64,000 nucleotides of DNA from Escherichia coli (GTDB taxonomy: Bacteria > Pseudomonadota > Gammaproteobacteria > Enterobacterales > Enterobacteriaceae), in assembly GCF_024298765.1 (NCBI RefSeq), contig NZ_CP101211.1; one strand, written 5' to 3'. Every line of letters begins with the position of its first letter. Position 1 is the stretch's first letter. The notes below the pieces were generated by a model. It saw nothing but the letters and a program-made list of their open reading frames with translations. It was not told the DNA's origin and did not search any database. Below, in pieces: positions 4,176-32,189 of this stretch. Position numbers and translations under genes: made by a program.

Positions 4176-4187
4176 GCTAATAACCCG
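4176..4187 (-). promoter_or_regulatory. conserved promoter-proximal element (GGTTATTAGCC on coding strand) with TATAAT 16 bp downstream
   Basis: read on minus strand: GGTTATTAGCC gctgaggctgtttaca TATAAT, then AGGAGG and ATG of 3836..4132. Confidence 0.5.
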
Positions 4188-4252
4188 TAGCAATATAATT
4201 TGCATTTTTTCTATTTCTGAAGACGCTTTTTAAATTAATATTTACTGAGTTA

Positions 4253-4531
4253 TCACAACTTATTATTCTTCCCGTCTGCTGTTTTATTAATCCCCCAGTT
4301 AGTAATCACGCCAAGTCGGCGCAATTTTTCACGTTGTTCATAAATAAAAAAATCGCCAAGGCAGTCTTTTAAAACTTCACTATCCTGATATTTTATTTTT
4401 TGAAGCATCCTCGCAACTATGGCGCGTTTCAGGAATATGGCTGCATCAGACTCAAGCATTTGTGAGGACTGTCTGACGGTCTCCTGCATGTCGACGATAC
4501 TGCTGAGCTTTCGTCTGACCACGCTTAGCAT
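4253..4531 (-). CDS. hypothetical protein (92 aa)
   Basis: ORF in operon. Confidence 0.4.
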   Translation of the reverse strand: MLSVVRRKLSSIVDMQETVRQSSQMLESDAAIFLKRAIVARMLQKIKYQDSEVLKDCLGDFFIYEQREKLRRLGVITNWGINKTADGKNNKL

Positions 4532-4715
4532 AGTGTCCGGGAACCGCTTAGCGGCTGAATGTAACCCGCAACAACGTTACGCATTGTTTTACTCACTGCA
4601 ATTTTCCATTTAAGTCTGTTTGTTCCACCAGCTGCTAACATCAGCGTTATTCATCCTGAGGTTTCGCCCGCGATTGACAGATCAGAGGCAGCATGGATGA
4701 AATTGCCAGAGTAGA

Positions 4716-4997
4716 TCACTGCATACGCGAATAGTGGTTTGTATTCAGTTCTGCGTTTGCCTGCTTTTCCAGTGCTGTCATAACCCGGCGGAGCATCGCC
4801 AGAGCCTGAACAGGCGAGCTCCCAAACTGCACTTTCACTTCAGCCGTATCATGATCCTGAATCAGGTCGAGTATATTCACTTCGATCCCTGCCCCGTTTT
4901 CATCTTTTGCCGTGCACTGAATACTTACCCGGGTCACCGAATCCGTCAGGACTGGCAGTGGGTTAGTTTTGTCTACGTTGATAACAGCCTTCTTCAT
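4716..4997 (-). CDS. hypothetical protein (93 aa)
   Basis: ORF immediately downstream of ParB-like gene. Confidence 0.45.
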   Translation of the reverse strand: MKKAVINVDKTNPLPVLTDSVTRVSIQCTAKDENGAGIEVNILDLIQDHDTAEVKVQFGSSPVQALAMLRRVMTALEKQANAELNTNHYSRMQ

Positions 4998-5062
4998 TGC
5001 CCTGTTTCCCCTTGTCCTGAAAAAGTTACCGACCCGTCCGGATGGAGGGGTCGGTCAGAAAA

Positions 5063-6247
5063 TCATGACTGTCCCTTGTTCATCTTATCAGCATGCTTAC
5101 GCAGGTACTCTTTCAGGTCAGCATGAGCGTTGATGATATCGTTCATTTCATCATTGGTCAGAACAAGCGTGTAAGTATCAGTACTGACAGATTCACCTTC
5201 TTTAAGCTTGGCTTCTTCAGCAATACGTTCAAAAATCGGGATCGCGGTGTCTGCAATGACGGTCACAGTCTTTTTGTTCAGAACGCTGGACATGGAAGGT
5301 GCTTTACCTGCCGGGTTCTGTTTAGGAGCGCTGTCCTTTGGAGCTGGAGCCGGTTCCTGTACCGGTGGCGTATCCAGCGTCTCCGTATTGCTTTCATCGT
5401 TCAGTTGATCCGGTACCGGGGTGTTATCGGTAGTATCATCTGCCGGTTGCTCAGCACCGATGTTTTCCGGAGTCTGCGGATCTGCCATGCGCTCTTCTAC
5501 CTTGGCAGCTTTGACGAATTTCAGCGTGTTTTTCGTCGCCTTGCCATAGATGGAGATCGCTTTGTTGATGTTATCTACCGCATCCTCACCGCTGTACATA
5601 TACTCGTCCAGTGCAACGTACATGCTCACCTGATCGCTCACAAGCATGGTCTGTAGTTCAGAAGGCAGGTCCAGTACGCGAACCATCTGGCGAAGATGCT
5701 GCTCTGATTTACCACGTTTTTTTGCCAGTTCCGCAAAGGTCTTAGGCTCTTCTTTATCTTCAACCAGACGCTTAATTGAAAGCGCTTCAGCTACGACAGA
5801 CAGCGCCAGGTTGGAGTTGCCGGTCAGGGTGAAGAGTTCTGCTTTTGAAGCGCTACCGCGAAACTCTTCGCAGCGAATACGAGTAATGCGTTCACGCCCT
5901 TCTGCTTCCAGCTGGCGGTTTGCAATAGCGATGGAACGGATACGGCAAGCCCCCTGACGCAGTACAGGTACGCCATTAACCATCTGAACAACGATAGGCG
6001 TCACGCTGAACGGGTCTTCCATGTAGGCATCGGCCAGGCTGTTCAGGTGTTCCACAACGTGAGGCATTGAATAGTAGAGCTCGCCCATACCGGCCGTGCG
6101 GGTGTTAAAGCCTTCCTGCTCTACAACAACCGAAGGGTCAATGATAAGGCCGTTGCCTTTACGGGCACCGTTACCAGTGCGTTCCAGGTAACCACGAAGG
6201 CTGATTTCGTTGCTGTTGTTTTTTACTTCAGTTTCGATTGCGGACAT
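5063..6247 (-). CDS. ParB-like nuclease domain protein (394 aa)
   Basis: ParB/Srx-type N-terminal box (GVPVLRQGACRIRS, compare paralog VRQGHCRLK at 58095..59258); Pro/Asp-rich acidic linker; two palindrome copies upstream. Confidence 0.75.
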   Translation of the reverse strand: MSAIETEVKNNSNEISLRGYLERTGNGARKGNGLIIDPSVVVEQEGFNTRTAGMGELYYSMPHVVEHLNSLADAYMEDPFSVTPIVVQMVNGVPVLRQGACRIRSIAIANRQLEAEGRERITRIRCEEFRGSASKAELFTLTGNSNLALSVVAEALSIKRLVEDKEEPKTFAELAKKRGKSEQHLRQMVRVLDLPSELQTMLVSDQVSMYVALDEYMYSGEDAVDNINKAISIYGKATKNTLKFVKAAKVEERMADPQTPENIGAEQPADDTTDNTPVPDQLNDESNTETLDTPPVQEPAPAPKDSAPKQNPAGKAPSMSSVLNKKTVTVIADTAIPIFERIAEEAKLKEGESVSTDTYTLVLTNDEMNDIINAHADLKEYLRKHADKMNKGQS

Positions 6248-6315
6248 TTTTGTTCTCTTTTTTGGTTGGTTGTTTAACTGCGCTACAACACAACAATACC
6301 AGGTTCGACATTTTT

Positions 6316-6326
6316 CCTAATAGGTT
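6316..6326 (-). promoter_or_regulatory. CCTATTAGG element adjacent to palindrome, candidate -35 region for ParB-like gene
   Basis: variant of the GGTTATTAGCC element; 16 bp upstream of a TATTGT -10-like hexamer on the minus strand. Confidence 0.35.
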
Positions 6327-6335
6327 GCGGAGAAG

Positions 6336-6350
6336 AAAAAGTAACTTTTT
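6336..6350. promoter_or_regulatory. AAAAAGTAACTTTTT palindrome copy
   Basis: exact palindrome ~90 bp upstream of ParB-like start. Confidence 0.5.
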
Positions 6351-6462
6351 TTAAAAATTTTCCTGAGGCAATACTACTCGATCCGTCCGTTTTAAATCTT
6401 CACAACAGTGGGCCGTTTTTACGTTTAAGCAAAATAACTGGTTCAGAAGGTGACTCAGAGAG

Positions 6463-6475
6463 AAAAGTTACTTTT
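6463..6475. promoter_or_regulatory. AAAAGTTACTTTT palindrome copy
   Basis: second copy ~215 bp upstream of ParB-like start, with the extended form ...AGAAAAGTTACTTTTCCGG. Confidence 0.5.
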
Positions 6476-6662
6476 CCGGTTGTCTGGGCCAGTGATGGGA
6501 GAGTGGCAGGACAGGAATGGCTAAACCGGTGCGGGTCTCTTGTAAGTCGCAGGGGATTCAGGAGATATAGAGGTAAACTGGTACGTTCAGTTTTTGGATT
6601 GAGCCGGGCTTTTGGCCCGGGCTTAAGGAAGCAGAAATTTGAACGAACTGGCAGGTAATGCT

Positions 6663-6839
6663 TTATGCCGCCGACAGCTGGCCGTCAGTGCTTTGCTGTT
6701 CTGGTTTGACAGTTGGGGGATAACCGGCAGTTAGCCGCTGGCATTCCGCATCACAGAAAGCCCTGAGGTTGCTGAAGACGGACTCCATGAAATCAGCATG
6801 AGCATACGAGTCTACAGGACGTGTCTTGTTATCTTTCAT
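6663..6839 (-). CDS. hypothetical small protein
   Basis: ORF (MKDNKTRPVDSYAHADF...); weak support. Confidence 0.3.
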   Translation of the reverse strand: MKDNKTRPVDSYAHADFMESVFSNLRAFCDAECQRLTAGYPPTVKPEQQSTDGQLSAA

Positions 6840-7348
6840 CTTGTTCTCCTCAATCATTATTAAAACCAGCGGATTTAGTTTCTGGCGCTCCATCTGCTGA
6901 CCGGCTTTCCCAGAGAGCAGCGATGTGTCGGGTTCTTTTTCTCATTTTATCGTTTTCATCGGGCCCATCCGGGCGTATAAGAGACCGATTTGGCATGTTT
7001 AGGAAACGTACTGGCGTAATTAAAAGCTGAGGTTGGATTTGGAATAAAAGGATGCTTTTCCCGTTTGTCGGGTCTTTCGCCACCGCTGCACGATGATTCT
7101 GTCAGGCATTCTGCGCCCTCCCAGGCTGCACATCTGGAAACAAGCGTTGGGATGTTCCCTTCCCCTGCTCACCGTAGAAAGATCGGCAAGTCCCGACGGT
7201 CGTTCCGTACGAGCCGGGTCCAAATAATGAATAAATAAAACGCCGCTTCAATTGTATTGACAATAGAAGTCAGGAGGATCATAGTGTCATTCATGGTGCG
7301 GCTTTCGCACCACCGCCCCGGCGGTACCGGGCAGAACTGGAGTACCTC

Positions 7349-8293
7349 ATGAAACTTTCCCGTCAGACGACTTCTGATACTTCTGTTGATGGCCGTTCAC
7401 GCGCATATGCCTGGGGCCGTGTCCATTATTTCATTATCGAACATGCACCAATGGCTGAGCTGGTCGCTATTGACGAGCTGCTGGAAAAAGCTGGCTGGAG
7501 CAATGACGGCTGTCCGAACTATGAGAAAGATGACGAGTTTGGTAATGCTGGTTACAGCTGTGGTTACTGGATCGATATTGACAGCGTGGGAAGCTTCAAG
7601 GCTGACTACAAACGTCTTAAGGGGGAGATTAGTGCGCATATCGCCTCAAAGGCGGCAGAGGTGGAGATCCGCGTACTGGACTCGATGTCCGACAAAGAAT
7701 GTAAAGATGTTGCCTCGGTGGCATCTACTGTTCGCCGTGACTTACGTACGCAGTCCGAATCGCTTCATTCACTGCGTACAATCGTAACGGTTGATCATTA
7801 CAATCCCTATGTGACCACCAGCCGCCCGCTGAGCATTTCCGCCTGGACACTTATCCACGACTGTCTGAAAACAGGCACCATCAATGACGTCTGTTCACGG
7901 TTGAGTTCATTAATCCTGCACTCTGAAGCCGCGATTGCCCGTTGTAAGGGAAGCTCCGACTACTCTTCGGAACACGCTCAGCTATCGTTTTTTGCTGGTA
8001 ACGACTATGTCACCAGACGCACCCTTGTTGATGCAGCTCACGAAGAGGCTCTGCGAATGAACCGCCGCTTTGATGAACGCATTGCAATGAACGCGGATTC
8101 TGATGCCAGAAGGCTCCAGTGCGAATTCAACCTTAGCAACCATGTCGTACAGCGTAGGACCGTTGAATCTGCTCATATCCAGGCACTCAATGAAGACGTC
8201 ACCCGTTCACAGGCGGAACCACGCTGCCCTGGAAAGCTTCTTCTGAATATGACCAGTCATGAGGAAGTGCGGGACTCACTGAGCGCCTGTTAG
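7349..8293 (+). CDS. hypothetical protein (314 aa)
   Basis: first gene of a plus-strand four-gene block; TTGACA-like hexamer upstream. Confidence 0.5.
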   Translation: MKLSRQTTSDTSVDGRSRAYAWGRVHYFIIEHAPMAELVAIDELLEKAGWSNDGCPNYEKDDEFGNAGYSCGYWIDIDSVGSFKADYKRLKGEISAHIASKAAEVEIRVLDSMSDKECKDVASVASTVRRDLRTQSESLHSLRTIVTVDHYNPYVTTSRPLSISAWTLIHDCLKTGTINDVCSRLSSLILHSEAAIARCKGSSDYSSEHAQLSFFAGNDYVTRRTLVDAAHEEALRMNRRFDERIAMNADSDARRLQCEFNLSNHVVQRRTVESAHIQALNEDVTRSQAEPRCPGKLLLNMTSHEEVRDSLSAC

Positions 8294-8389
8294 TCCAGCG
8301 ACACCCCCTGCGGCTCTACTACCGGGCCGCAGTCTGCTCCTGCCCAGATGGTGCCAGTGGTGTAATGAATTTGTTTAATAAGGCTAAGT

Positions 8390-8992
8390 ATGATGAATAA
8401 AGAACAACTAATCGACAAACTGGAACGCGTGGTATGTGGTCAGTACTCCTACGAAATGCAGGAGCTTGCGTATTCGGCCCTCTGCTGCATTAAAGGCACC
8501 CCGGACGACTGCGCTAAGTTCCCTGTTACGCGTCCGCTGCCTGACACCTTAGTGGACGTATGGGACGAAATCGGGCAATACCTTGGCACAGGCAAAGCCA
8601 TTGAAACTCGCAGTTGCGGCGTTTCGCTTCTGCTTCATGGACACTGCTACGATTCAAATCATGTGCTTTACTGGCGCAATGCTGGCGCACTTCCAGCAGC
8701 TTGCGATACGCCACTGGCTGGTGGGTCTCGCAAACTGTTCACCTGCTCAGCCTGTGGAGTGGACGGTCTGGATGAACCACCTGAAACCAGTTGCCACTGC
8801 TGCACAGAGGGGGCCCACTGGGTTGAGAGCAGGCTCTTCACCTCCGGGCAGGCAGACCCTGAAGAATTTAGACCCGTGGCGGTCGTGAAAGAGTGTGCAG
8901 GCTCAACGCCGGATGATCGGCTCATCTGGAGTGTGATTGAACAGCTCAACGGCGAACTGGCGGAAGGCGATAAACTATTTAAGCGACGCTGA
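8390..8992 (+). CDS. Cys-rich hypothetical protein (200 aa)
   Basis: multiple CxxC/CC pairs (CSACG, CHCC); candidate metal-binding protein. Confidence 0.5.
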   Translation: MMNKEQLIDKLERVVCGQYSYEMQELAYSALCCIKGTPDDCAKFPVTRPLPDTLVDVWDEIGQYLGTGKAIETRSCGVSLLLHGHCYDSNHVLYWRNAGALPAACDTPLAGGSRKLFTCSACGVDGLDEPPETSCHCCTEGAHWVESRLFTSGQADPEEFRPVAVVKECAGSTPDDRLIWSVIEQLNGELAEGDKLFKRR

Positions 8993-9045
8993 CAGATCAC
9001 GGCAGCATTTATAACAGACGAACTCCAGAATAATTTAAAGCAACC

Positions 9046-9402
9046 ATGAACATGAAAAAGCCCAAAGCTGCATTACAGAATGCCATGAAAGAAGATGTGC
9101 CAGCTGTGACACAGATTCAGATGCGATCTACGGTTTCCAGAAAGGTTCGCTATGTAAAACAGGCAAATCGAGAGGGTCTGAAATTATCTGAGTGGATGTC
9201 GCGGCATCTCGACGCTGTCTGTGATACCGCAGATGAGATTCATAAAGGCAAACGCTCAACTCCGGTTGCGCCTGGGAAGATTCCCCCAGAGGTATACCAG
9301 GTGATATACGATCAGTGCGGCGGGTTCGTGGAGTGTGATGCTAATGCCCAGGTTATCTGGGAAGCCTGCCGTAATGCCATTCTTAACGGAGACAAAGGGT
9401 AA
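9046..9402 (+). CDS. putative ribbon-helix-helix DNA-binding protein (118 aa)
   Basis: N-terminal strand-helix pattern QMRSTVSRKVRYVKQANREGLKLSEWM; paralog of 35810..36067. Confidence 0.4.
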   Translation: MNMKKPKAALQNAMKEDVPAVTQIQMRSTVSRKVRYVKQANREGLKLSEWMSRHLDAVCDTADEIHKGKRSTPVAPGKIPPEVYQVIYDQCGGFVECDANAQVIWEACRNAILNGDKG

Positions 9403-9432
9403 ACGGCAGGTATCGCCTGTCATTTTACCCTT

Positions 9433-9651
9433 GTGAGGACAATACTGATGAACCATGAGAGCCGAACTGTATACCTGAACACGGCCATTGAGGCCCTGCT
9501 GAAAGCTGAGGCGGCTCTGAACGATCTGGCATTAGCCTATGAGCTTAAACCTGATGAAAAGGCAAGCGCATGCCATCCCAGAACCGGCACACTTTCCACT
9601 GCGTCCCAGGTAAAAAAACTCCGCCGTGTCCTTGAGAAGCAGAAGGTATGA
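9433..9651 (+). CDS. hypothetical protein (72 aa)
   Basis: ORF following 9046..9402. Confidence 0.35.
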   Translation: MRTILMNHESRTVYLNTAIEALLKAEAALNDLALAYELKPDEKASACHPRTGTLSTASQVKKLRRVLEKQKV

Positions 9652-9660
9652 AGGGCTGCA

Positions 9661-9963: not shown

Positions 9964-9964
9964 T

Positions 9965-10003
9965 AAAAGAAAAAAGGGTTCCTCCGCTTTAGAGGAACCC
10001 TTT
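9965..10003 (-). terminator. intrinsic terminator
   Basis: minus-strand stem AAGGGTTCCTC/GAGGAACCCTT followed by TTTTCTTTT. Confidence 0.55.
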
Positions 10004-10039
10004 CAAAAGGTGCCGATGGCATACTAATCCACACCCTGA

Positions 10040-10063
10040 AAAGAGGGGGGTTGCCCCCCTCTT
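10040..10063 (-). terminator. hairpin at hok 3' end (terminator or fold-back element)
   Basis: stem AGAGGGGGG-ttg-CCCCCCTCT just 3' of the hok stop codon. Confidence 0.45.
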
Positions 10064-10069
10064 TGTCAG

Positions 10070-10326: not shown

Positions 10327-11178
10327 TTAAACACGAGGCATATAGGTCTGATTCCGATATTCAATTGGAGTCAGACCTTTTAATTTCAGGCTAATTCTTC
10401 TGCTGTTGTAGTATTCAATATATTCCGTAACAGCATCCTTCAGCTCGCTTATATTACTGAACTCATCAAGATAAAAACACTCCGACTTTAAGGTTCCAAA
10501 GAAACACTCCACCACAGCATTATCCAGACAATTGCCTTTTCTGGACATGCTTTGTTTAATACCATGTTCTTTAAGGATATTTTGATATCTTCTCATACGA
10601 TACTGCCATCCCTGGTCAGAGTGCAGAACAGGATGCTCGTGAGGATTAAGCTTTTTGAATGCCTGATCGAGCATATTCTCGACCATGTTCATCACTGGTC
10701 TTTCCGAAAGGCTGTAAGAAATAACTTCGTTGTTGAAGAGATCTATTACTGGAGACAAATACAGCTTGCGCCCATTGACTGCAAATTCAGTAACATCGGT
10801 AACCCACTTCTCGTTTGGCCGCGTAGCCTTGAAATCTCTTTGGAGAACATTGGGGGCGGTTTGCCCTACCTCTCCTCTGTAAGAGCGGTATCGCTTGACC
10901 TTAATCGCTGCCTTCAGTGAGAGGATTCCCATCAGGCGCTGAACAGCTTTATGGTTAATCTGTTTCCCTTCTCGATGAAGAGACAGCGTTACCCTACGGT
11001 ATCCGTATCGGCCTCTATTCTCATGATAAATCTCACCAATACGCTTTTTAACGTCCGCATACTTGTCAGGCTTGCTGAGAGCCTTTAGATGGTAATAAAA
11101 CGTACTGCGCGGTATCTCCGCAGCCCTGAGAAGCTCATCAAGAGGATAAAACTGCCTTAGCTCGTTGAGTACTTTCAC
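10327..11178 (-). CDS. insK: IS150 transposase OrfB (InsK)
   Basis: 283-aa IS3-family DDE transposase matching IS150 InsK. Confidence 0.95.
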
Positions 11179-11696
11179 TTTTTCGTGGGATGAGCTAAGG
11201 CTTTCAGCTTTTTTAGATACACAAGCCGCGTTTCAAGAAATCGAACTTGCCTTTCAAGATCCTCAATGCGTCGGTCTTTTGACAGCTCCAATGCTGATGC
11301 CGCTTTTTCTGGATCAACTGATATTGCAATGTTTCTTTTGGTGCCAATCTTGAGCGCGCGTAAACCAGCTTCTCCGCGCTCTTCATAAACCTTCAGCCAC
11401 CTGGCTACAGAACCACTACCAGCAAGCATAAAGTGAGCAGCAGCCTGATTAAGGGACATGTGCTGCTCGATCACCGCTTTCACGACCTTAATACGCAACT
11501 CAGGATCAGCACTAACACCTTTAGGTTTGGGAATTAAACCTTTTTCTCCATGTTTTTCATAGAGGGCAACCCATGTCCTGACCTGGGTTCGGGGGACACC
11601 AAAACGTGCCGAGATGATCCTGTAACCATCATCAGTAGTGAAGTAGTGATTCACGACTTCAAGGCGCTTTTCAAAAGGGTATTTTGGCTTTGACAT
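11175..11696 (-). CDS. insJ: IS150 OrfA (InsJ)
   Basis: 173 aa beginning MSKPKYPFEKRLEVVNHYF, matching IS150 InsJ. Confidence 0.95.
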   Translation of the reverse strand: MSKPKYPFEKRLEVVNHYFTTDDGYRIISARFGVPRTQVRTWVALYEKHGEKGLIPKPKGVSADPELRIKVVKAVIEQHMSLNQAAAHFMLAGSGSVARWLKVYEERGEAGLRALKIGTKRNIAISVDPEKAASALELSKDRRIEDLERQVRFLETRLVYLKKLKALAHPTKK

Positions 11697-13505: not shown

Positions 13506-13817
13506 TTATCGCATATAACGCTGTTGCATAAACAGATACAGATAACCCTCAGGAGAAAACATGCAAAGGTTATCAGTGATAACCGCATCCAGATACCGAG
13601 TGTCAGTCTGTAAACGTTTTATCACCAGAAAATGTGCTGCCGCAGCCTTAATGCCAGAACTACCGTTTACAACATTATGTATACCCGCTTCGAATAACGA
13701 ACGAGCATGAATTACCTTTTCCCGGGCCGCTTCGATCTCCGCATTAATAACGCATTGCCGCGCCTGGATGACTGCCTCTCCGGTTAAATCGCGGAAATTC
13801 ATTAGAGATGTGATCAT
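13506..13817 (-). CDS. hypothetical protein (103 aa)
   Basis: ORF in minus-strand operon. Confidence 0.4.
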   Translation of the reverse strand: MITSLMNFRDLTGEAVIQARQCVINAEIEAAREKVIHARSLFEAGIHNVVNGSSGIKAAAAHFLVIKRLQTDTRYLDAVITDNLCMFSPEGYLYLFMQQRYMR

Positions 13818-14039
13818 GATTAACTCTCCAGATTATGTGGAATCATTATAACAACTGGCATCCCGCCACAAATAACCTGAGAAAAATTCTTTGAAATATT
13901 CCTATATATAAGGAATTACAGTCGGAAAAGAAACGATGAAATAGCGCCGACCGCTTAAAATCGATAAATTAAAATGGACGGCACTGGAATGAAAAACTGA
14001 AAGTAGTAAGACCGTAATTATCCTTCACGGATGTAAGCT

Positions 14040-15806: not shown

Positions 15807-16003
15807 AGGCTTACTCTCCCTCTTCAGTGGACAACATCAGATACTTTGTTGCCAGCAGAAGCTCTCCCACATCCTTGAGGGACAATTCAGCTTTGCCTTC
15901 TACGGCAAGCTGCAAGCGCTGTCGAATTGCATGAACAGAATCTGAAGATAAAGATGCCATTTTGCGCAAAACGGCATTAGCCTTTTCTGGTAATGACTCC
16001 AAC

Positions 16004-16507
16004 TTATTGATAGTGTTTTATGTTCAGATAATGCCCGATGACTTTGTCATGCAGCTCCACCGATTTTGAGAACGACAGCGACTTCCGTCCCAGCCTTGCC
16101 AGATGTTGTCTCAGATTCAGATTATGTCGCTCAATGCGCTGAGTGTAACGCTTGCTGATAACGTGCAGCTTTCCCTTCAGGCGTGATTCATACAGCGGCC
16201 AGCCATCCGTCATCCATACCACGACCTCAAAGGCCGACAGCAGGCTCAGAAGACGCTCCAGTGTGGCCAGAGTGCGTTCACCGAAAACGTGCGCCACAAC
16301 TGTCCTCCGTATCCTGTCATACGCGTAAAACAGCCAGCGCTGACGTGATTTAGCACCGACGTAGCCCCACTGTTCGTCCATTTCAGCGCAGACAATCACA
16401 TCACTGCCCGGTTGTATGCGCGAGGTTACCGACTGCGGCCTGAGTTTTTTAAATGGCGGAAAATCGTGTTGAGGCCAACGCCCATAATGCGGGCTGTTGC
16501 CCGGCAT
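16004..16507 (-). CDS. insB: IS1 InsB
   Basis: matches IS1 InsB. Confidence 0.9.
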
Positions 16508-16701
16508 CCAACGCCATTCATGGCCATATCAATGATTTTCTGGTGCGTACCGGGTTGAGAAGCGGTGTAAGTGAACTGCAGTTGCCATGTTTTACGGCAG
16601 TGAGAGCAGAGATAGCGCTGATGTCCGGCGGTGCTTTTGCCGTTACGCACCACCCCGTCAGTAGCTGAACAGGAGGGACAGCTGATAGAAACAGAAGCCA
16701 C
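16426..16701 (-). CDS. insA: IS1 InsA
   Basis: [30 protein letters not shown]... matches IS1 InsA. Confidence 0.9.
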
Positions 16702-16948
16702 TGGAGCACCTCAAAAACACCATCATACACTAAATCAGTAAGTTGGCAGCATCACCGCCTTTTCTACAGCAGGATACAGAATTTCTGAGTTGGTATTATC
16801 TTCGTCATTATCAAAGATAATTTCAGAATCCATATTGATGTTATCTTCAAGCCAGCTTGAAAGCACTTCAAGTAATGACATCACCTTTTCAATTTGCATA
16901 TCGCCTCCTCTGTTAATGTGAAACAAATATAACAAAGTGGCTTACCCG

Positions 16949-16963
16949 GCTAATAACCTGAGC
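16949..16963 (-). promoter_or_regulatory. GGTTATTAGCC promoter-proximal element with TATATT 16 bp downstream
   Basis: also forms one arm of a long hairpin (TAACCTGAGCAGAAAGTT / AACTTTTCTGCTCAGGTTA). Confidence 0.45.
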
Positions 16964-17914: not shown

Positions 17915-18142
17915 TTACGAAATAAGTTTCTCACACTCCTGTATAAGAGTCGCCCTGGAACGAGATCGACTGGCTTTGCTTAATGAAGAGCGTAGTTGAT
18001 GTTCATCAACCCCATCAGCGATAAACTGACCGATTTTTGTTTCAAGCCGCTGCATTGCCTCGTAAAGCTTGGCATCCGCATTATTTTTAAGAAACCTCAG
18101 TATATAATCAGCAATAATTTGGACGGGAGTGAACTTATACAT
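17915..18142 (-). CDS. hypothetical protein (75 aa)
   Basis: ORF. Confidence 0.35.
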   Translation of the reverse strand: MYKFTPVQIIADYILRFLKNNADAKLYEAMQRLETKIGQFIADGVDEHQLRSSLSKASRSRSRATLIQECEKLIS

Positions 18143-18369
18143 TATGTATCCTTAAGACGTTGTGTTAAATGATTCAAAAAAATTTATAACCAGACGTAAA
18201 TTATTATACATAAGTAAGCACTTTAGCTAACAAGCTGGAGGAGTGAATTTCGGTTAGCAACTATATTTTAGAAGCTGATTGCTGAATAGACAAAGCCCGG
18301 CTTACCGGGCATTCATTTAATTAGATGCTAGAAATCTGACCCGTCGTCTGACTTTTATTCCAGGCAGAG

Positions 18370-19871: not shown

Positions 19872-20183
19872 TCATTCAGATACCCCCTCAACTTTGCGAA
19901 TTTTGATCAGATGAGGGCGATTCAGTTTACAAAGTTGTTCTGTCGCTTCATCAATCGAATTGAACCGATGAGCCTCTTCGATATTTAAAGTCCAGTATTT
20001 CGCTTTCCCTTCTCCCAGATCGGACTCAAAATAATTTCGCTTTACATCCATTTTTTTAGGCCTGCCATTTATCTTGACGACATTATGTCTGTCATCAAAA
20101 AGAAATTCGTCCCCCTCAAAAGTGATTAATACAAATGGCCCCTCAGGCTTGGAAGTCCGGGGACTTCCCATTTTCAAAGTCAT
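19872..20183 (-). CDS. hypothetical protein (103 aa)
   Basis: ORF. Confidence 0.4.
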   Translation of the reverse strand: MTLKMGSPRTSKPEGPFVLITFEGDEFLFDDRHNVVKINGRPKKMDVKRNYFESDLGEGKAKYWTLNIEEAHRFNSIDEATEQLCKLNRPHLIKIRKVEGVSE

Positions 20184-23792: not shown

Positions 23793-24584
23793 TTATGCGC
23801 CGCAAAGGGTGTCAAGGGAAGGAAGAAGCTTGCTCAGCTTGTCGTAATCGAGCGGAGACAGTTCTGTAACGAGTTCGACCGAAAGACTGGTGTTGTCTTC
23901 TTCACTCAGAATATAGATTCCGTCTTCTGGCTCTTTTCCGGCACATGCCTTCAGTCGTCTGTTAACGACCTCCTGGGCTGAATCCGCTACGTCGCAGCTC
24001 AGGACATAGCTTGCCACATAGCTGCTCTCACCGTGGTAATGCGTCACTTTACACAGAGCATACTGGATACCGGCTTTGTGAGCCTCATTCATGAGACGAG
24101 AAAACTGACAGCCATCCTGGTAATAGTGGGTATCCTTTGTGACCAGAATAGTCATACCCCCAAATTCATCTGTCCGGCTTTTACTGCATGTAAATGCAGC
24201 AGTAATTGTTACCATTTCCGGGAGGTCGAATACCGACAGCACGGCAGTTGTGAGGCAAATTGCATGGTCAAGATCAATAGTCTCTCCATGAAAAACTGAC
24301 AGCCCACTGCTGTTAACTTCTGTTGCGAACGACAGTTCATAATTACAGTCTGGGCAGGATGGTTGCCCAAAGCTCGGCTCTGAAGGGTCATACTCAGGGT
24401 GGTTCTCAATAATACTGAGAATCAGCTTCTCAGTCAGAGAACAATCTGCCAGTGGCTTATCAAGCAAACGCTCACCTTCTGCAATTTCTGCTTCGGTAAC
24501 GAATGTGATTGCTTCTTGTGCCATTTTAGCCTGCTCCTGAGTGCAGGGAATAATAAACGACGCCAGAGTATAATTATCTGCCAC
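23793..24584 (-). CDS. hypothetical protein (263 aa)
   Basis: ORF; promoter-proximal element at 24651. Confidence 0.5.
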   Translation of the reverse strand: MADNYTLASFIIPCTQEQAKMAQEAITFVTEAEIAEGERLLDKPLADCSLTEKLILSIIENHPEYDPSEPSFGQPSCPDCNYELSFATEVNSSGLSVFHGETIDLDHAICLTTAVLSVFDLPEMVTITAAFTCSKSRTDEFGGMTILVTKDTHYYQDGCQFSRLMNEAHKAGIQYALCKVTHYHGESSYVASYVLSCDVADSAQEVVNRRLKACAGKEPEDGIYILSEEDNTSLSVELVTELSPLDYDKLSKLLPSLDTLCGA

Positions 24585-24650
24585 AGTTGACTCCTTGATT
24601 ATTTAATTAATGTATTTGATGAGAAGATCATAACAAACACACTACTACCA

Positions 24651-24666
24651 ACTAATAACCTGAAGT
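24651..24666 (-). promoter_or_regulatory. GGTTATTAGTT promoter-proximal element with TATGAT 17 bp downstream
   Basis: minus strand CTTCAGGTTATTAGTT-N17-TATGAT. Confidence 0.45.
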
Positions 24667-25133: not shown

Positions 25134-25460
25134 CTAAAACGCAGGGTTGCCATCGAGGAAGCTCATTGGCTGGCCAATAGCGGATGCCACCCTGAGAATT
25201 TCACCTGGTGTGGCATAGCGCAGCATTTCTGAGCGTCCAAATTTCTGATACTCATCTACTGACATCTTTCTCCACTCGGGGTGAGGATCTTTTCCGCACA
25301 GTGACCAGTTGCTTTCAGAGGAATCACGACGGAGAACGTACACATCAAGCGAGGCTGTAAGCCCGCTTCCATATCCCCGCTGCGCTACAATACGAACCTG
25401 AGAACCATCGTCGCGTTGCAACGTCTGGGTTAATTTCGTGATAGGATCCTGAGAATGCAT
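25134..25460 (-). CDS. hypothetical protein (108 aa)
   Basis: ORF; promoter-proximal element at 25511 and palindrome at 25666 upstream. Confidence 0.45.
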   Translation of the reverse strand: MHSQDPITKLTQTLQRDDGSQVRIVAQRGYGSGLTASLDVYVLRRDSSESNWSLCGKDPHPEWRKMSVDEYQKFGRSEMLRYATPGEILRVASAIGQPMSFLDGNPAF

Positions 25461-25510
25461 GCCATTTACCTCGTTTTTAAAAGAATTACCGTAAGTAAAT
25501 GATACCGAAT

Positions 25511-25524
25511 CGAGAATTCTGGCT
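25511..25524 (-). promoter_or_regulatory. CCTATTAGCC promoter-proximal element with TATCAT 16 bp downstream
   Basis: variant of the GGTTATTAGCC element. Confidence 0.4.
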
Positions 25525-25665
25525 AATAGGTCAGAAGAAAAAATATTGCATATTTTTGAAGTGTAGGATAATGATTAGAATAAAATGGCCTGAATAAATC
25601 GTTAGCTTTAACTCTGCTTATTTCAGAAAAACTCTGAATTAGTAGTGATGGAAAACGACGCGGTG

Positions 25666-27553: not shown

Positions 27554-27721
27554 CAGCCATCCTAATGGGGATACAGTTATTATATCGGCCTGATGGTTGG
27601 AAGTGAGATTACTAAATCAGACCGATCTGGTTTGTTGAAGACTTTGCCAAATCATGCAGCACAGCTGGGCTTGCACAGAGCGAGCCGGGCTCCTTTAGCG
27701 GAGACACCTTCGCAAGTTGGA

Positions 27722-28342
27722 TTAATCAGCCTCAAGATTCTGGAACTCAATGAGCTTTTGCTCACACTCCTCCCTGCCCCACGATCCCTGCCAGTCACAG
27801 ATGTCCCGGTACTTACTTTCCAGCTTATCCATCTGTGCGAGATTAGCTGTTGCGAAGTCTGTCCATATGTCATGCCAGCAAGCGTTGTACGTAACGCCAG
27901 CTGGTGGACAATACTCCATTGCATCAGCATTAATAATTTCAACGCGAAGATCGGTTGCAAACGAGGCTGCAACGAGGTTAATAACATCCTGTTCTTTTTC
28001 GATTACCGTGACATGGGTTACATCGTCTTTCTGAAGAATGGCGTGGAGCACCATACCAAGACCAAGACCATTAATGAGCACCCGCCCGGTGGCTCGCTCT
28101 ATAAAATCCTGGCAGGTTCGGATCTCCATCGGGGTATTGGACATCACCACATCCCAGCCGTTGGACAAGCGGCGATATCTACCGGGCGGGATAAACTCAT
28201 CTGTATTACCAGTACACTCGGCACGAAGGGCGAGGGTCAGCGCCTTATCTGTGGTAATTTCGAAAGTGTCCAGTTTCCAAGTTCCGGACTTGCCGTCTTT
28301 AACGGGTAAATCAGAAAAGCAGCTCTTCATCGAGGCAACCAA
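27722..28342 (-). CDS. hypothetical protein, possible Rossmann-fold methyltransferase-like (206 aa)
   Basis: VLINGLGLGMV resembles SAM-binding motif I; otherwise unassigned. Confidence 0.4.
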   Translation of the reverse strand: MVASMKSCFSDLPVKDGKSGTWKLDTFEITTDKALTLALRAECTGNTDEFIPPGRYRRLSNGWDVVMSNTPMEIRTCQDFIERATGRVLINGLGLGMVLHAILQKDDVTHVTVIEKEQDVINLVAASFATDLRVEIINADAMEYCPPAGVTYNACWHDIWTDFATANLAQMDKLESKYRDICDWQGSWGREECEQKLIEFQNLEAD

Positions 28343-28485
28343 AATTCCAGTAGTTTTGTTACGCTGAACCTACCACAAACCCGCTCTTAATGAAGGCATC
28401 AGGAGCGATAGCGATCTTTGAGGCATCGTTTAAAACAGCGGCATCCTGTAACAGACACCCGATATTTTTTTTAATGCCGCAGGTG

Positions 28486-28743
28486 TTAAAGGTAGCGTTG
28501 CAAAGTTGCAACATCTTCAGGGGCAACCTCCACGCAGCTCCTGACACTGTAGTGATTTTCGCCGTTGTAGTCATAAACCCCACCGTCTTCAAAACTCAGC
28601 TGTTCAACCTCGCCAGCACACTCGGAAATCAGTGCCGTCTGGCAAGCATTTTTCTCACAATCGCTGACGAGTATACGAACATAGCTTTTCTCATGGTCGC
28701 CGTTACGGTTCTGGATCTTTACGATAAAGTGTTTTTCAGACAT
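28486..28743 (-). CDS. hypothetical protein (85 aa)
   Basis: ORF with GGAGG RBS. Confidence 0.4.
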   Translation of the reverse strand: MSEKHFIVKIQNRNGDHEKSYVRILVSDCEKNACQTALISECAGEVEQLSFEDGGVYDYNGENHYSVRSCVEVAPEDVATLQRYL

Positions 28744-28807
28744 TTGTGCCTCCAGCTCAGGTTGAGGTTAATTTAGCGTTGCCCCGGTTCACCGGGGCAA
28801 GAATAAA

Positions 28808-29236
28808 TCAACCCTTAATGAAATTGTGCCCCCAGGTGTTAGGCTTAAATGCCTGCTCTTTGATATATGTTTTCATTACCTTGCAGGTTTTTTTCAGGGC
28901 TTTGGTATTGGCATCGGTTACTGGGATAAAATGGCGAGAATGACGGTTTTCCCGGTACTGCTTATCAGCGTTTGGGTCAATTGCTTCGCTTTGCAGGAGC
29001 CCTTCGTGCCTGCCAATTACTATTACGTAGTTCATTTCACCTGAAACACGATCCGTGAGTAATTGAAGGGAAATATCAGCTGCTCGCGTGGCCTGGCTTG
29101 CAGATATTTTTGCATGCAAGAAAGCCCCCTTTCTGAATTTGGCCGGAGTTAGCCCTGTAATATCCTCAACACTAAAATTAAGTGAGGAAAGAATTGAAAA
29201 TAAGTCGCAGCTAATGACTTCAGTATTATTAGGCAT
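28808..29236 (-). CDS. hypothetical protein (142 aa)
   Basis: ORF; inverted repeat operator-like element upstream. Confidence 0.45.
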   Translation of the reverse strand: MPNNTEVISCDLFSILSSLNFSVEDITGLTPAKFRKGAFLHAKISASQATRAADISLQLLTDRVSGEMNYVIVIGRHEGLLQSEAIDPNADKQYRENRHSRHFIPVTDANTKALKKTCKVMKTYIKEQAFKPNTWGHNFIKG

Positions 29237-29266
29237 TTTACCCGTCCCCGTCCATATTCATGATAC

Positions 29267-29295
29267 GGTAATGATACCAGGTCGATATCATTACC
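29267..29295. promoter_or_regulatory. inverted repeat GGTAATGATA-N9-TATCATTACC
   Basis: perfect 10-bp arms overlapping the putative promoter of 28808..29236. Confidence 0.4.
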
Positions 29296-29330
29296 TAATA
29301 ACTTGGTGAAAGAAAATCTGTAATTTTTAG

Positions 29331-29708
29331 TTAACTAAAATTAATAGTCTCAATACTGCTCAAGAATTCTTTTTTTACGTCCGGTGTAAAAGGTATACGT
29401 TCAATGTATTTATAAAGTGTCGCAAATGTTTTGGGTTCAATGTTTCGGGAGATAATGTCATCAATCGGATCTTCGAACATATTGATAAAGATATCGACAT
29501 GCTGCTCTCCGCTTTCTGATGCCTTTGAAAGAAGACTGACCACTTCAATGTAGCGATTATCCTGCTCTGCAATGAACAACCAGTGCCCTTCGTTAAAGGC
29601 GGGTGCAGCGCTGTAGCGTTTAACAACAATTTCTGAAAGATTATATCCTGCCTGATTCAGCAGATTATTAAAGTTGAGTTGAGTTGAAATCACGTCTAAC
29701 GTTTTCAT
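29331..29708 (-). CDS. hypothetical protein (125 aa)
   Basis: ORF with AAAGGAGG RBS. Confidence 0.45.
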   Translation of the reverse strand: MKTLDVISTQLNFNNLLNQAGYNLSEIVVKRYSAAPAFNEGHWLFIAEQDNRYIEVVSLLSKASESGEQHVDIFINMFEDPIDDIISRNIEPKTFATLYKYIERIPFTPDVKKEFLSSIETINFS

Positions 29709-29755
29709 AAAACCTCCTTTTCATCTGTACTTATTATACTGTTACCCAACCCCCA

Positions 29756-29770
29756 GCTAATAACCTCCCA
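29756..29770 (-). promoter_or_regulatory. GGTTATTAGCT promoter-proximal element with TATAAT downstream
   Basis: minus strand GGGAGGTTATTAGCT ... TATAAT ... AAAGGAGG ATG. Confidence 0.45.
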
Positions 29771-29877
29771 GCAAATTTTCAGAAAAAAAACACCGCCTTT
29801 TATTTAAGATTGAACACATCCTTTTTAAATACCAACAATGATTATGAAACCACAATGTAAGTGAAGCGCCATTATGG

Positions 29878-29890
29878 AAAAGTAACTTTT
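29878..29890. promoter_or_regulatory. AAAAGTAACTTTT palindrome copy
   Basis: exact palindrome ~170 bp upstream of 29331..29708. Confidence 0.5.
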
Positions 29891-30115
29891 GTGCAGCTCA
29901 TAAATTTTATTTATTAGTTACGTTCCTTTGTCTTGTGGTCGAAGTTCATCAGGCGAGGCCTAAGAAGAATATGTGTGGTTTCAGCCAATGCGGTGATCGG
30001 GCATTATAATTTGGTCGGGCTATTATACGTGGGTAAAGGTAGTGGTAGGGAGAGGATCAGGTTAAATTGCATTTTCCCGGTTGCCTTCCCTGGCCTACCG
30101 GTTTCAGGTCAGACG

Positions 30116-31297
30116 CTAAGACCAGCGGTAATACTTAAAGTAGTCCTCATTTACAGCCAAAAACTCCCTTAAACCGTTCATTAATCCCTTTTCAAACGCT
30201 GTAACGATAAACCGGTATCCGTCCAGTGTTTCAATGTAGTAGATCCCGCCCGGTGTTATTCCAACATGCAACACCTCGGCTGTCATCATAAACTGGCCTT
30301 CCGGAAAATCATGCGACAGGTATATAAAACCCGTCGTGGCCGGTGCGGGTGTGGCATTCACTAAGACACCGTTAAACTGCTGCCCGTGCCTCGCCGGTAC
30401 AAGCTCACTTCCCCTGGTTGACTTATCGAGCAGCCCCTTAACATCTTTTTGCTCTTTAGATGAGGTATAGCCCCGCACATCACTCCCATCACCTGGGCGA
30501 GAGCCGGTGCCGACATGTGCAAGACGACGGTAAGCGCTGCGCATATTGATGTGGCAGGATGCCCCGGCTCTACCCTGAAGCCTTACGCCAAAATCTTCGC
30601 AAAGTAATAAAATCTGACGTAGCTGGTGTTCATACACGGACGCAGAAAGTGAAAGGTTGAAACTGGAAAAGGTCAGTTCTAAAACCTTTTCCCGTTTGTC
30701 ATTGAAATGTGCTTCCAGCCTGATGATTGGCTTTTCCGACATTGCAAAAGCTTTGTCCGTTGCTCTGTACCGGCATTCATCTCCGAAACATTCTTCAACA
30801 ACGCTGGCTATAACCGTGTCGTGATCGCCATCTTCCGGAGCTGGCACAAAGATTTCAAATTGTGCCGGTGTCTCCGGCTCCAGCAGAACGGGATATAAAC
30901 GCGGAGAATTAAGCAATGCGCATTCAGAATTAATGAGCTTAACCCAGGCGCTTTTGTCGTCCGGATCCTTAAGCTGCTGTCCAAGGTTATCGCAAAAGTC
31001 TACTATCTGACGGGTATGCTCATCCGTGACTGCACAGATCAGGTTAAGACCATGCGTGGCCATACTCAATTCCCGGGTTCGGGACTGGGAATTGATCGAC
31101 CAGGGGTTAAGTGAAAGCGAAATAGGGCTTATGGAAGGGACGACCGTCTCATTCTGCAAATCTGTAAGCTGGCAGTTCGCAGTAGGCTTCGGGGAAAGGG
31201 TACTAAATATGTAACTTGCCTGTTGTTTAGTACTGGCCTGGATATAAAACATCGCGTCCATGCTTGTATCCCGGGATGAAATTGAAAATAGCTTCAT
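30116..31297 (-). CDS. hypothetical protein (393 aa) immediately downstream of HigB-like gene
   Basis: starts 9 bp after the higB-like stop; no HTH recognised. Confidence 0.5.
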   Translation of the reverse strand: MKLFSISSRDTSMDAMFYIQASTKQQASYIFSTLSPKPTANCQLTDLQNETVVPSISPISLSLNPWSINSQSRTRELSMATHGLNLICAVTDEHTRQIVDFCDNLGQQLKDPDDKSAWVKLINSECALLNSPRLYPVLLEPETPAQFEIFVPAPEDGDHDTVIASVVEECFGDECRYRATDKAFAMSEKPIIRLEAHFNDKREKVLELTFSSFNLSLSASVYEHQLRQILLLCEDFGVRLQGRAGASCHINMRSAYRRLAHVGTGSRPGDGSDVRGYTSSKEQKDVKGLLDKSTRGSELVPARHGQQFNGVLVNATPAPATTGFIYLSHDFPEGQFMMTAEVLHVGITPGGIYYIETLDGYRFIVTAFEKGLMNGLREFLAVNEDYFKYYRWS

Positions 31298-31305
31298 TTT
31301 TAACC

Positions 31306-31602
31306 TTAATGGATGAGCGATTTATAGTCATGTGCTGACAAATGGACATTATGTGCGCCATCATTCCATTCAAAGAATAATCGATACTTAGAGTTTACTC
31401 GAATGGAGGAATAACGGTTTGACGTCATTCTTAAGCGTTCATAACGCAAGCTGTTGGATAATAACTCCCGCTCACTCTGGACATTATCCAGCGTTTCGAG
31501 TCGACACAGAATCGCGTTAATAATTTCAGAAGGAATACCTGCCGTTGTTTTTCCATTACGGAAGAACTTTTCAAGCCGTCTGTCTTTAAATGAATGGATC
31601 AT
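31306..31602 (-). CDS. HigB-family (plasmid killer) toxin-like protein (98 aa)
   Basis: FKDRRLEKFF...IPSEI...SIRVNSKYRLFFEW.DG aligns with Rts1 HigB (FKDKWLEQFY...SIRVNKQYRLIFKW.DG). Confidence 0.7.
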   Translation of the reverse strand: MIHSFKDRRLEKFFRNGKTTAGIPSEIINAILCRLETLDNVQSERELLSNSLRYERLRMTSNRYSSIRVNSKYRLFFEWNDGAHNVHLSAHDYKSLIH

Positions 31603-31651
31603 AGTTCCTCCGTAATAATTGACCTTAAAATTAAATTAAAAGGGCTTTGAA

Positions 31652-32122
31652 TTAATGAATCCCTAAAATGCGGGCGGCGACTGCCAGCTGCTTATCACTT
31701 AACTGACGCTGGTGGGTTAAAGAAGACTTAAGGCTTTCCAGAAAATTATTACTGCTGGATTGCTGGGTGATTGCATCAACCATTTTTTGATGAGATCTGC
31801 ACCATGCATTGAACGCAGAGTTGTGGGCGTTTTCAGTCCTCAAACGCTCGTTTTGCAAGGATGCTGACACTTTGCGGGCAGCTTGAGCATTAATGCGGTA
31901 CAGCGCATTCAGCGTGTAAGCAGTGCGGGTCGTTTCGAGGCTGTAACCCGTGGCTTTACAAGCCATACAGCGACTTCTATAAAAATGCTTACGCTCTCCC
32001 CGACCATTGCATTTATCGCAAAGAATACGAAAAGTATATTCCGCAGTACCTTTTACAGAATCAACACAGCGGATTTTTGCGCTGGAGATTTCAATTCCAC
32101 TGCGATCATAATATTTGGTCAT
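31652..32122 (-). CDS. zinc-ribbon protein (156 aa)
   Basis: CDKC...CMAC cysteine pairs. Confidence 0.45.
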   Translation of the reverse strand: MTKYYDRSGIEISSAKIRCVDSVKGTAEYTFRILCDKCNGRGERKHFYRSRCMACKATGYSLETTRTAYTLNALYRINAQAARKVSASLQNERLRTENAHNSAFNAWCRSHQKMVDAITQQSSSNNFLESLKSSLTHQRQLSDKQLAVAARILGIH

Positions 32123-32174
32123 AATGTGATTCCTCCGGTTAGTTCTGGAGTAATCATGACAGAATGAATCTACT

Positions 32175-32189
32175 GGCTAATAACCTGAG
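32175..32189 (-). promoter_or_regulatory. GGTTATTAGCC promoter-proximal element
   Basis: minus strand CTCAGGTTATTAGCC ~60 bp upstream of 31652..32122 start. Confidence 0.45.

Follow-up and report, generated by a model that had tools for sequence, protein, structure and literature searches.

The stretch of DNA analyzed here (the window: 64,000 bp of contig NZ_CP101211.1 from Escherichia coli) is, by its sequence, IncHI2 plasmid backbone: a 9-kb piece of it is 100% identical to many IncHI2 plasmids from Escherichia, Salmonella, Enterobacter, and Klebsiella, and the window is collinear with plasmid pG17-1 except for one IS1. It runs from the end of the relaxase (Tra1) operon through a block of ∼37 kb into genes for immunoglobulin (Ig)-like proteins, the RepHI2 replicon, and further backbone genes that form a second group; the block consists of about 50 small genes, almost every one on the minus strand and almost every one annotated as “hypothetical”. 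Upstream of many genes in this backbone we identified a conserved sequence of 11 bp (hereafter the box), which occupies the -35 position of a shared promoter class that is probably bound by a regulator (Table 1). A phage origin, suggested by the layout of the small genes, was rejected, since phage records were matched by IS1 only and the window belongs to an IncHI2 plasmid. For comparison, R478 (the reference IncHI2 plasmid) and R27 (IncHI1) were retrieved whole.

Copies of the Box Promoter in the Window

The first-pass annotation of the window had listed eight copies of the element, each followed at a fixed distance by a -10-like hexamer. All eight are present, on the minus strand, and seven of the positions were right; the copy placed at 25511 is off by about 10 bp, CCTATTAGCC being at 25521-25530. 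Each of them has a hexamer (TATAAT, TATATT, TATGAT, TATCAT, TATTGT, or CATGAT) that begins 16 bp past the third base after TTATTAG (17 bp at 24651) and is followed by a Shine-Dalgarno sequence and a start codon. The list itself was too short. By searching for the core YTATTAG together with a -10-like hexamer, by using a position matrix (which recovered TTGTTAG and TTATTTG cores), and by reading one variant directly, we found further copies at 13875(-), 18233(-), 37382(+), 57908(-), and 59540(+), and weaker ones at 1179(-) and 63575(-). This brings the window to 13 strong box promoters and two weaker variants, on both strands and out to 63.5 kb, and the box is also present on other parts of the plasmid. 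When the copies were aligned for their distance to the -10, the hexamer began exactly 16 bp past that third base in 12 of the 13 strong sites and 17 bp past it in the remaining one.

Such an arrangement is far more frequent than expected by chance. The pattern YTATTAG-N18-20-TAnnnT occurs 10 times in the window, compared to a mean of 0.7 (maximum 5) across 200 dinucleotide shuffles, and GGTTATTAGCC at two or fewer mismatches occurs 27 times, where 15 are expected and no shuffle reached 27. The composite scores of the strong sites are between 21 and 31, whereas the top match per shuffled window scores between 12 and 20. The exact 14-mer TCAGGTTATTAGCC is found at about 120 unrelated genomic loci (in 1 Mb), mostly as chance matches, and served only as a negative control; among these ∼120 loci, it is accompanied by a strong -10 (score of at least 6.6) at the right spacing only in the two IncHI2 contigs, the next best score being 5.3. 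Of the seven GGTTATTAG 9-mers in the window, six are in promoter configuration. Two further box-like cores may be chance occurrences or secondary sites: GCATATTAGCC, with TATAAT 13 bp downstream of it, precedes the box at 37382 by 50 bp (window 37325-37372, plus strand), and an inverted TTATTAGG overlaps the start codon of gene 28808-29236 (window 29220-29236).

Anatomy of the Promoter

We aligned 28 sites (13 from the window and 15 from R27), numbering them from a conserved adenine 7 nt after the hexamer. From upstream to downstream, the alignment contains a tract rich in A or T at -62 to -47, with a run of thymines at its end, that resembles a distal upstream-promoter (UP) subsite; the box itself at -41 to -31 (cARSYTATTWG), in which T-36, T-34, T-33, and G-31 are invariant; a weak preference for C-C-A at -30 to -28; and a spacer without information (16 bp, counted from C-29, in 12 of 13 window copies). 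A TG extension precedes the -10 hexamer in many sites (T-15 in 19 and G-14 in 21 of the 28 sites; TGn in 8 of the 13 window sites). The hexamer reads TAtaaT, with A-11 and T-7 in all sites and T-12 in 25, and in 24 of the 28 sites the predicted start is an adenine at +1 preceded by C or T at -1, 7 nt after the hexamer. Even the probable variant at 63538..63579, which was read directly, keeps T-36, T-34, T-33, and G-31 and the exact spacing.

Judged by these features, the promoter is of the sigma-70 extended -10 type, with a conserved predicted start and with a foreign sequence replacing the -35 hexamer. Scanning the region between 23 and 38 kb with the consensus TTGACA-N16-18-TATAAT recovered none of the seven box promoters there, and the best surrogate for a -35 hexamer, TTAGCC at -34 to -29, matches TTGACA at three of six positions, one short of the four that would make it canonical. 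We infer that the box is no sigma-70 -35 hexamer, because an invariant guanine at hexamer position 4 and conservation that extends to -41 do not fit TTGACA.

The first-pass annotation had also described the element as a near-palindrome, which holds for the inner TA-T-TA only; the whole element is an oriented, asymmetric box of 11 bp. Across 35 sites, complementarity around the box center is 0.8 at ±1 and ±2 and falls to between 0.17 and 0.43 at ±3 to ±12, and nearly all of the information is one-sided, in the left and central part of the box. With complementarity confined to the two innermost positions and most of the information in the left half, the two-fold symmetry of a palindromic operator is lacking. 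We also considered that the copies might derive from a dispersed repeat or a promoter cassette, but rejected this, since no similarity among the aligned copies extends past the box, the -10, and the A/T tract, and the columns of the spacer and flanks carry about 0 bits.

Table 1. Box promoters of the window (each from box to predicted +1) with their counterparts on related plasmids, and other repeated elements.
Feature	Position	Strand	Box and -10	Gene or operon downstream	Counterpart or remark
Weak variant box promoter	1142..1183	-	CCGAACCTGTTTGGCC then TATAAT	94-aa gene, 841-1125	Composite score 18.3; R27 ortholog at 97302 keeps AACCTATTTGG and the -10
Box promoter	4146..4187	-	GGGTTATTAGCC-N16-TATAAT	98-aa gene, 3836-4132	R27 94688 and R478 214569; box kept, flanks differ
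Box promoter	6286..6327	-	AACCTATTAGGA-N16-TGGTATTGT	394-aa ParB-HTH gene, 5063-6247	R27 92256
Palindrome AAAAGTAACTTTT	20 bp upstream of box promoter 6286..6327
Variant box promoter	13838..13879	-	CAGGTTATTTGTG-N16-TGTTATAAT	103-aa gene, 13506-13817	R27 89136
Consensus box promoter	16919..16960	-	CTCAGGTTATTAGCCG-N15-TATATT	DUF957/DUF3085 operon, first gene cut by IS1	R27 84156
Variant box promoter	18196..18237	-	CAGCTTGTTAGCT-N16-TATAAT	75-aa gene, 17915-18142	R478 site at 230552 conserved
Box promoter (sole copy with 17-bp spacer)	24620..24662	-	TTCAGGTTATTAGTTG then TGTTATGAT	263-aa gene, 23793-24584	R27 68129
Box promoter	25492..25533	-	TGACCTATTAGCCA-N15-TATCAT	108-aa gene, 25134-25460	R27 67257
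Box promoter	29264..29305	-	CCAAGTTATTAGGTA-N15-TGGTATCAT	142-aa gene, 28808-29236
Box promoter	29726..29767	-	GGGAGGTTATTAGCTG-N15-TATAAT	125-aa gene, 29331-29708
Best-scoring box promoter	32146..32187	-	CTCAGGTTATTAGCCA-N15-TGTCATGAT	156-aa zinc-ribbon protein, 31652-32122; HigB-like toxin, 31306-31602; 393-aa protein	R27 64750, box identical
Box promoter	37378..37419	+	TGGAGGTTATTAGCTC-N15-TGTTAATAT	254-aa gene, 37440-38204, followed by a methyltransferase gene	R27 63082
Box promoter	57871..57912	-	CTGAACCTATTAGGTT-N15-TGCTATCCT	DUF4942 gene, 56156-57847	R27 46546
Box promoter	59536..59577	+	CCTAAGTTATTAGTTA-N15-TACGAT	Dam-family methyltransferase gene, 59607-60440
Probable variant box promoter	63538..63579	-	AGCCCTATTTGGCA-N15-TATCAT (63550-63545)	351-aa ParB-HTH gene, 62469-63524	R27 40840
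13-bp palindrome sites	1288, 6337, 6463, 20617, 25666, 29878, 34047, 35082, 40799, 43023, 51194, 51259, 59338, 61202
IncHI5-type motif promoters	p11219-IMP (stretch L012), ∼6520-6560, 8450-8490, 13715-13755, 19930-19970

Conservation among IncHI Plasmids

The position matrix gave about 17 sites in each of R478 and R27, nearly always directly upstream of genes that are reciprocal best hits (45-75% protein identity). In nine orthologous promoter pairs between the window and R27, the box core is identical at a fraction of 0.9-1.0 and the -10 hexamer at 0.89, compared to 0.53 for the spacer and 0.41 further upstream. A third lineage, represented by pKPC_CAV1374 (typed IncHI1A), has seven box sites in the 41 kb examined. 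By sequence comparison, the box is thus phylogenetically footprinted, kept at orthologous IncHI1 and IncHI2 promoters while their flanks have diverged, and the same site stands at the same promoter position in many operons of related plasmids, as expected for a global regulon. The earlier suggestion of a conserved, non-consensus sequence at the -35 of a shared promoter class is therefore borne out by the anatomy, by the footprint between IncHI2 and IncHI1, and by the failure of the TTGACA/TATAAT scan.

The IncHI5 plasmid p11219-IMP contains a homologous gene block, including DUF4942, DUF957, DUF6012, and a ParB-like gene (35% identity), but we found no box in this block; several of its promoters share another motif, AGGGGCTTGAT-N17-TGTATCCTGGTTT (Table 1). 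The TATCCTGG part of the IncHI5 motif recurs at the DUF4942 promoter of IncHI1 and IncHI2 (window 57871-57912). The sequence comparison suggests that regulator and site form lineage-specific pairs. Moreover, since the plasmids compared reside in the same hosts and the IncHI5 plasmid has another motif, the protein that reads the box is more likely to be encoded by the plasmid than to be a host factor.

These comparisons bear on two alternatives. The first is that no dedicated factor is involved and that the box is the flavor of strong sigma-70 promoter favored by this plasmid lineage, spread by duplication of a cassette or by a preference of RNA polymerase. All other parts of the promoter are indeed ordinary sigma-70 features, and TTAGCC still has three of the six bases of TTGACA; however, paralogous promoters have only the box, the -10, and the A/T tract in common, the invariant T-36 and G-31 are not read by region 4 of sigma-70, the box stays constant between IncHI1 and IncHI2 while spacers and flanks drift, and a sister lineage in the same hosts has a different motif. 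We therefore regard a factor-free origin as improbable. The second is that the box is a palindrome of the MqsA antitoxin type (consensus ACCT-N3-AGGT) or is bound by a regulator of the host, for example Lrp, ArcA, or Fis, which we consider very improbable. Two of the copies come close to the MqsA palindrome (57908 reads AACCTATTAGGTT and 6323 reads AACCTATTAGGA), but most copies read GGTTATTAGCC with a right half that is barely conserved, so that the likeness of three copies does not extend to the family, and we found no MqsA-like helix-turn-helix (HTH) protein among 55 proteins of the window. For the host regulators, none of the consensus sequences considered agrees with the invariant T-T-T-G pattern, and in the same hosts the IncHI5 block again has another motif.

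No box was found in the promoter regions of the transfer (tra) operons AC, F, H/R, AN, and Z of R27 and R478; the top scores there are at most 10.3, with no partnered -10. Because the tra promoters lack it, TrhR/TrhY and HtdA do not act on transfer by way of the box. A text search of the literature (for the motif, its reverse complement, and IncHI regulation and transcriptomes) returned no account of the box, a provisional result given the thin coverage of subscription journals; one apparent match to the motif was rejected, as it came from Legionella primers only.

Genes behind the Box Promoters and Candidate Regulators

The genes that follow box promoters include a Dam-family methyltransferase, the DUF4942 gene, and the DUF957/DUF3085 pair; one box operon precedes an MTS-type methyltransferase, and another lies upstream of an N6/N4 methyltransferase and a protein annotated “methyltransferase” in PHROGs. 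The set also includes toxins (Hok and HigB-like), and the remaining genes have no recognizable domains. Leading-region islands with anti-defense functions typically consist of one-directional orphan methyltransferase, toxin-antitoxin, and ParB-like genes that are expressed early (PMC11541004). The block in the window fits such islands in gene content and single orientation, and is separated from the origin of transfer (oriT) region by the 10-kb relaxase operon.

We searched about 70 plasmid proteins against NCBIfam, Pfam, PHROGs, and PDB sequences for DNA-binding candidates and found only ParB-HTH, Mrr_N, and Ter domains. The candidates that we noted are three ParB-HTH paralogs, the 156-aa zinc-ribbon protein encoded behind the best-scoring box, and, as a speculation, a Tus-like protein. 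The ParB-HTH paralogs, all on the minus strand and separate from the true ParB of the plasmid, may be KorB-like regulators, judging from their sequences; two of them (394 and 351 aa) have box promoters, and the third (387 aa, 58095-59258) has none and lies between two box promoters. The 156-aa protein has a DnaJ-type CxxCxGxG zinc ribbon and no recognizable HTH. Its gene precedes that of the HigB-like (RelE-family) toxin, and a toxin partner placed before rather than after the toxin is an unusual arrangement. A second protein with a zinc finger of this type is encoded at 61538-62254, and no relatives of the 156-aa protein were found in viral contigs.

E. coli Tus is a monomeric, asymmetric DNA binder that represses its own promoter through TerB. 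The possibility that the box is the target of a distant, plasmid-encoded Tus homolog, reused as a global transcription regulator, rests on several observations: the Pfam Ter domain (E = 2.9e-19) is present in a protein encoded by both R478 (55875-56855; L003 5875-6855) and R27 (stretch L011, 12022-12981), its operon has a weak box promoter upstream in both plasmids (R478 54741 and R27 164633), the box is asymmetric and about as long as the Ter core, and neither plasmid has a canonical Ter site (of the GTTGTAAC context) within three mismatches of GTATGTTGTAACTAAAG. The case is purely circumstantial, however; the box is no more like the Ter core than expected by chance, a phmmer comparison of the homolog with solved Tus gave no match at E ≤ 0.001, and the homolog may bind other, unrecognized terminator sites. 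We hold this identification to be more doubtful still than a box without any factor.

Neighboring Insertions

The IS1 at ∼16000-16770, which is 94-95% identical to the IS1 of P1 and others, sits inside the DUF957 gene, about 130 bp after the gene start, and so cuts the box promoter at 16919-16960 off from the rest of the DUF957/DUF3085 operon; pG17-1 and R478 are without this insertion. At 10327-11696 (minus strand), just upstream of the hok-family toxin gene, there are two overlapping open reading frames of 283 and 173 aa, at the place that corresponds to an IS150-family transposase annotated by RefSeq in pG17-1.

Expression of Box Genes in R27

Microarray data are available for R27 in wild type and in an htdA mutant at 25 and 37°C (PMC7366339). 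We mapped the R-numbers of these arrays to genes by counting from anchors (IS10, tetC, corA, hok, traH, and the genes of the H operon), so that the assignments may be off by one, for example around R0061-63. The operon behind the best box, R0064-66 (the 156-aa protein, the HigB-like toxin, and the 393-aa protein), is at background level in all four conditions, as is R0107-09, which follows another strong box (PMC7366339). By comparison, several genes with weaker or variant boxes are expressed (R0104 at ∼2200, R0113 at ∼2600, and R0098 at ∼1200; PMC7366339). The gene for the 387-aa ParB-like protein (R0042 by our mapping) is among the most highly expressed genes of R27.

By these data, HtdA is excluded as the repressor of the box promoters, and a promoter with a strong box can be wholly silent in established cells. 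A role of the box as the site of TrhR/TrhY or HtdA was rejected on the same evidence, since the tra promoters are without the box and the operons behind the best boxes are not derepressed in the htdA mutant.

A Plasmid-Encoded Repressor as the Preferred Explanation

It is highly likely, on the sequence evidence above, that the box is the binding site of a regulatory protein and defines a regulon. As for the kind of regulator, the explanation that we prefer, with a probability of roughly 0.45, is a plasmid-encoded repressor whose site overlaps a weak -35 and which would allow a burst of expression on entry into a new cell. The box promoters would drive the “establishment-type” backbone operons of IncHI1 and IncHI2 plasmids that are not concerned with transfer, and a plasmid-encoded protein would sit on the box and on the weak -35 surrogate, silencing promoters that are intrinsically strong; placed on -41 to -31, this protein would exclude both region 4 of sigma and the C-terminal domain of the alpha subunit (alpha-CTD). 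On arrival of the plasmid in a cell without this protein, the whole set would fire as a burst, to be turned down after establishment. The promoters should be active alone, because they have UP-like tracts, a TG extension, and a near-consensus -10, and their gene content (orphan methyltransferases, ParB-like proteins, and Hok- and HigB-like toxins) suits a program that fires at once in a naive recipient and is then switched off, as in the Kor and ArdK regulons. The background expression in R27 of the operons behind two of the best boxes (R0064-66 and R0107-09) likewise leans toward a repressor.

Several observations weigh against a repressor. The asymmetry of the box and its strict orientation and spacing relative to the -10 are more typical of class II activators, or of activators that substitute for the -35, than of dimeric repressors. 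The expression of box genes in R27 is heterogeneous, with R0104 and R0113 on and others silent, and at 25°C many box genes, like the majority of plasmid genes, are up 3- to 15-fold in the htdA mutant. No candidate regulator (the ParB-HTH paralogs, the Tus-like protein, or the 156-aa protein) could be tied to the box. The box promoters are predicted from sequence, and by gene content and orientation the block is a candidate leading region of IncHI transfer.

The main rival is a plasmid-encoded activator that replaces recognition of the -35, whether of class II, by sigma appropriation as with MotA, or in the manner of AcaCD/SetCD, in which case the operons would be off without the activator. An asymmetric box in fixed orientation, 16 bp from the -10 in 12 of 13 copies, is a hallmark of MotA-box, MarA-type, and AcaCD/SetCD-type promoters; the consensus scan indicated that a usable -35 is absent; the A/T tract just upstream could seat alpha-CTD beside a bound activator; and silence of the best-box operons in steady-state R27 cells is also what would be expected with the activator missing. 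On the other hand, TG-extended promoters with near-consensus -10 hexamers and UP-like tracts usually need no activator, promoters with weaker boxes are among the better expressed in R27, genes that are needed immediately in a naive recipient would be ill served by an activator that the plasmid must first make, and the known IncHI activators TrhR/TrhY work on tra promoters, which are without the box. The R27 arrays, being heterogeneous and of uncertain numbering, fit both repression and a missing activator. We consider an activator possible but less likely than a repressor. A bolder proposal, to which we give somewhat less credence than to an activator, is that the IncHI plasmids have a second global circuit apart from TrhR/TrhY-HtdA, in which a monomeric plasmid protein (possibly the Tus homolog) would read an 11-bp box that replaces the -35 and so switch about 17 establishment and anti-defense operons at entry; such a mechanism, in which the -35 is either substituted or occluded, would be one that has not been described for conjugative plasmids.

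Comparison with Known Regulatory Systems

A plasmid global regulon is a known kind of system, and it is the asymmetry of the box and its placement as a -35 surrogate that are unusual for this kind. In IncP plasmids (RK2/RP4), KorA, KorB, and KorC act through short sequences at a fixed place in many promoters, tying maintenance and establishment operons to plasmid regulators, and ParB-family (KorB-like) proteins are encoded nearby, as are the three ParB-HTH paralogs here; however, Kor operators are true palindromes bound by dimers, whereas the box is asymmetric and unrelated in sequence. Leading-region control in IncN and IncW plasmids (pKM101 CUP, with ArdK/KorA-type repressors) likewise uses repeated promoter elements before anti-restriction and establishment genes in one orientation, with the same expected logic of a burst on entry followed by repression, but the CUP repeats are several hundred bp long, compared to about 11 bp plus generic promoter features here.

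The AcaCD (IncC) and SetCD (SXT/R391) systems, which belong to related MOBH/MPF-F elements, place a motif over the -35, with constant spacing to the -10, in more than 10 promoters, many of them before genes of unknown function. Those boxes control transfer genes, in contrast to the box described here, which is lacking from IncHI tra promoters, and the motif sequences are unrelated; in addition, a Pfam scan of 68 IncHI proteins found no FlhC/FlhD domain, the type to which these master activators belong. Phage T4 middle promoters also have an asymmetric box of 9-11 bp that replaces the -35 and keeps a fixed spacing to an excellent -10, in many cases with a TG extension, but the MotA box is centered near -30 and the IncHI box near -36, the setting is a plasmid rather than a phage, and no MotA or AsiA homolog was detected. 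Finally, in phage P1, a large replicon, numerous promoters have C1 operators (17 bp, asymmetric) that are bound by a monomer. The CTAATAA of the C1 operator is also present in the reverse complement of the box, a resemblance that serves as a lead only; the orientation relative to transcription is opposite and the flanks differ.

A Separate 13-bp Palindrome

A second repeated element in these plasmids is a perfect 13-bp palindrome, AAAAGT(A/T)ACTTTT, often GAAAAGTWACTTTTC. The window has 14 copies at one or no mismatch (Table 1), compared to 0.22 expected; R478 and R27 have 25 and 26 exact copies, respectively, and about 50 each at one or no mismatch. Plasmid-wide, copies are found in the oriT/H-R intergenic region, ahead of trhA and of the Ig-like genes, and in the promoter that serves the gene for the 387-aa ParB-like protein. 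We rejected a link between the box and the palindrome AAAAGTWACTTTT, since no more than about 5 of 17 box promoters are preceded by one at a distance of 400 bp or less; with so few, the palindrome belongs to a separate system. It resembles an operator for a dimeric protein, with the 6-1-6 format of KorB operators, which it matches in format better than the box does, and could be the site of TrhR/TrhY/HtdA or of one of the ParB paralogs. It is probably what the first-pass annotation counted as its first conserved element. A literature text search for the palindrome gave no match.

Implications for IncHI Plasmids

In typhoid Salmonella, multidrug resistance is spread by IncHI1 and IncHI2 plasmids. 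In Enterobacteriaceae, these plasmids carry mcr-1, mcr-9, and many other resistance genes, and genes without a known function make up more than half of their backbone. The box would join some 15-17 function-poor operons, including those for four or five orphan DNA methyltransferases, ParB-like proteins, and a HigB-like toxin, into one regulon, suggesting that IncHI plasmids are regulated by more than the TrhR/TrhY-HtdA and H-NS/Hha circuits known so far. It may thus offer an experimental handle for identifying the regulator, for testing whether these genes form an early program of establishment or anti-defense, and for finding ways to block the establishment of these plasmids.

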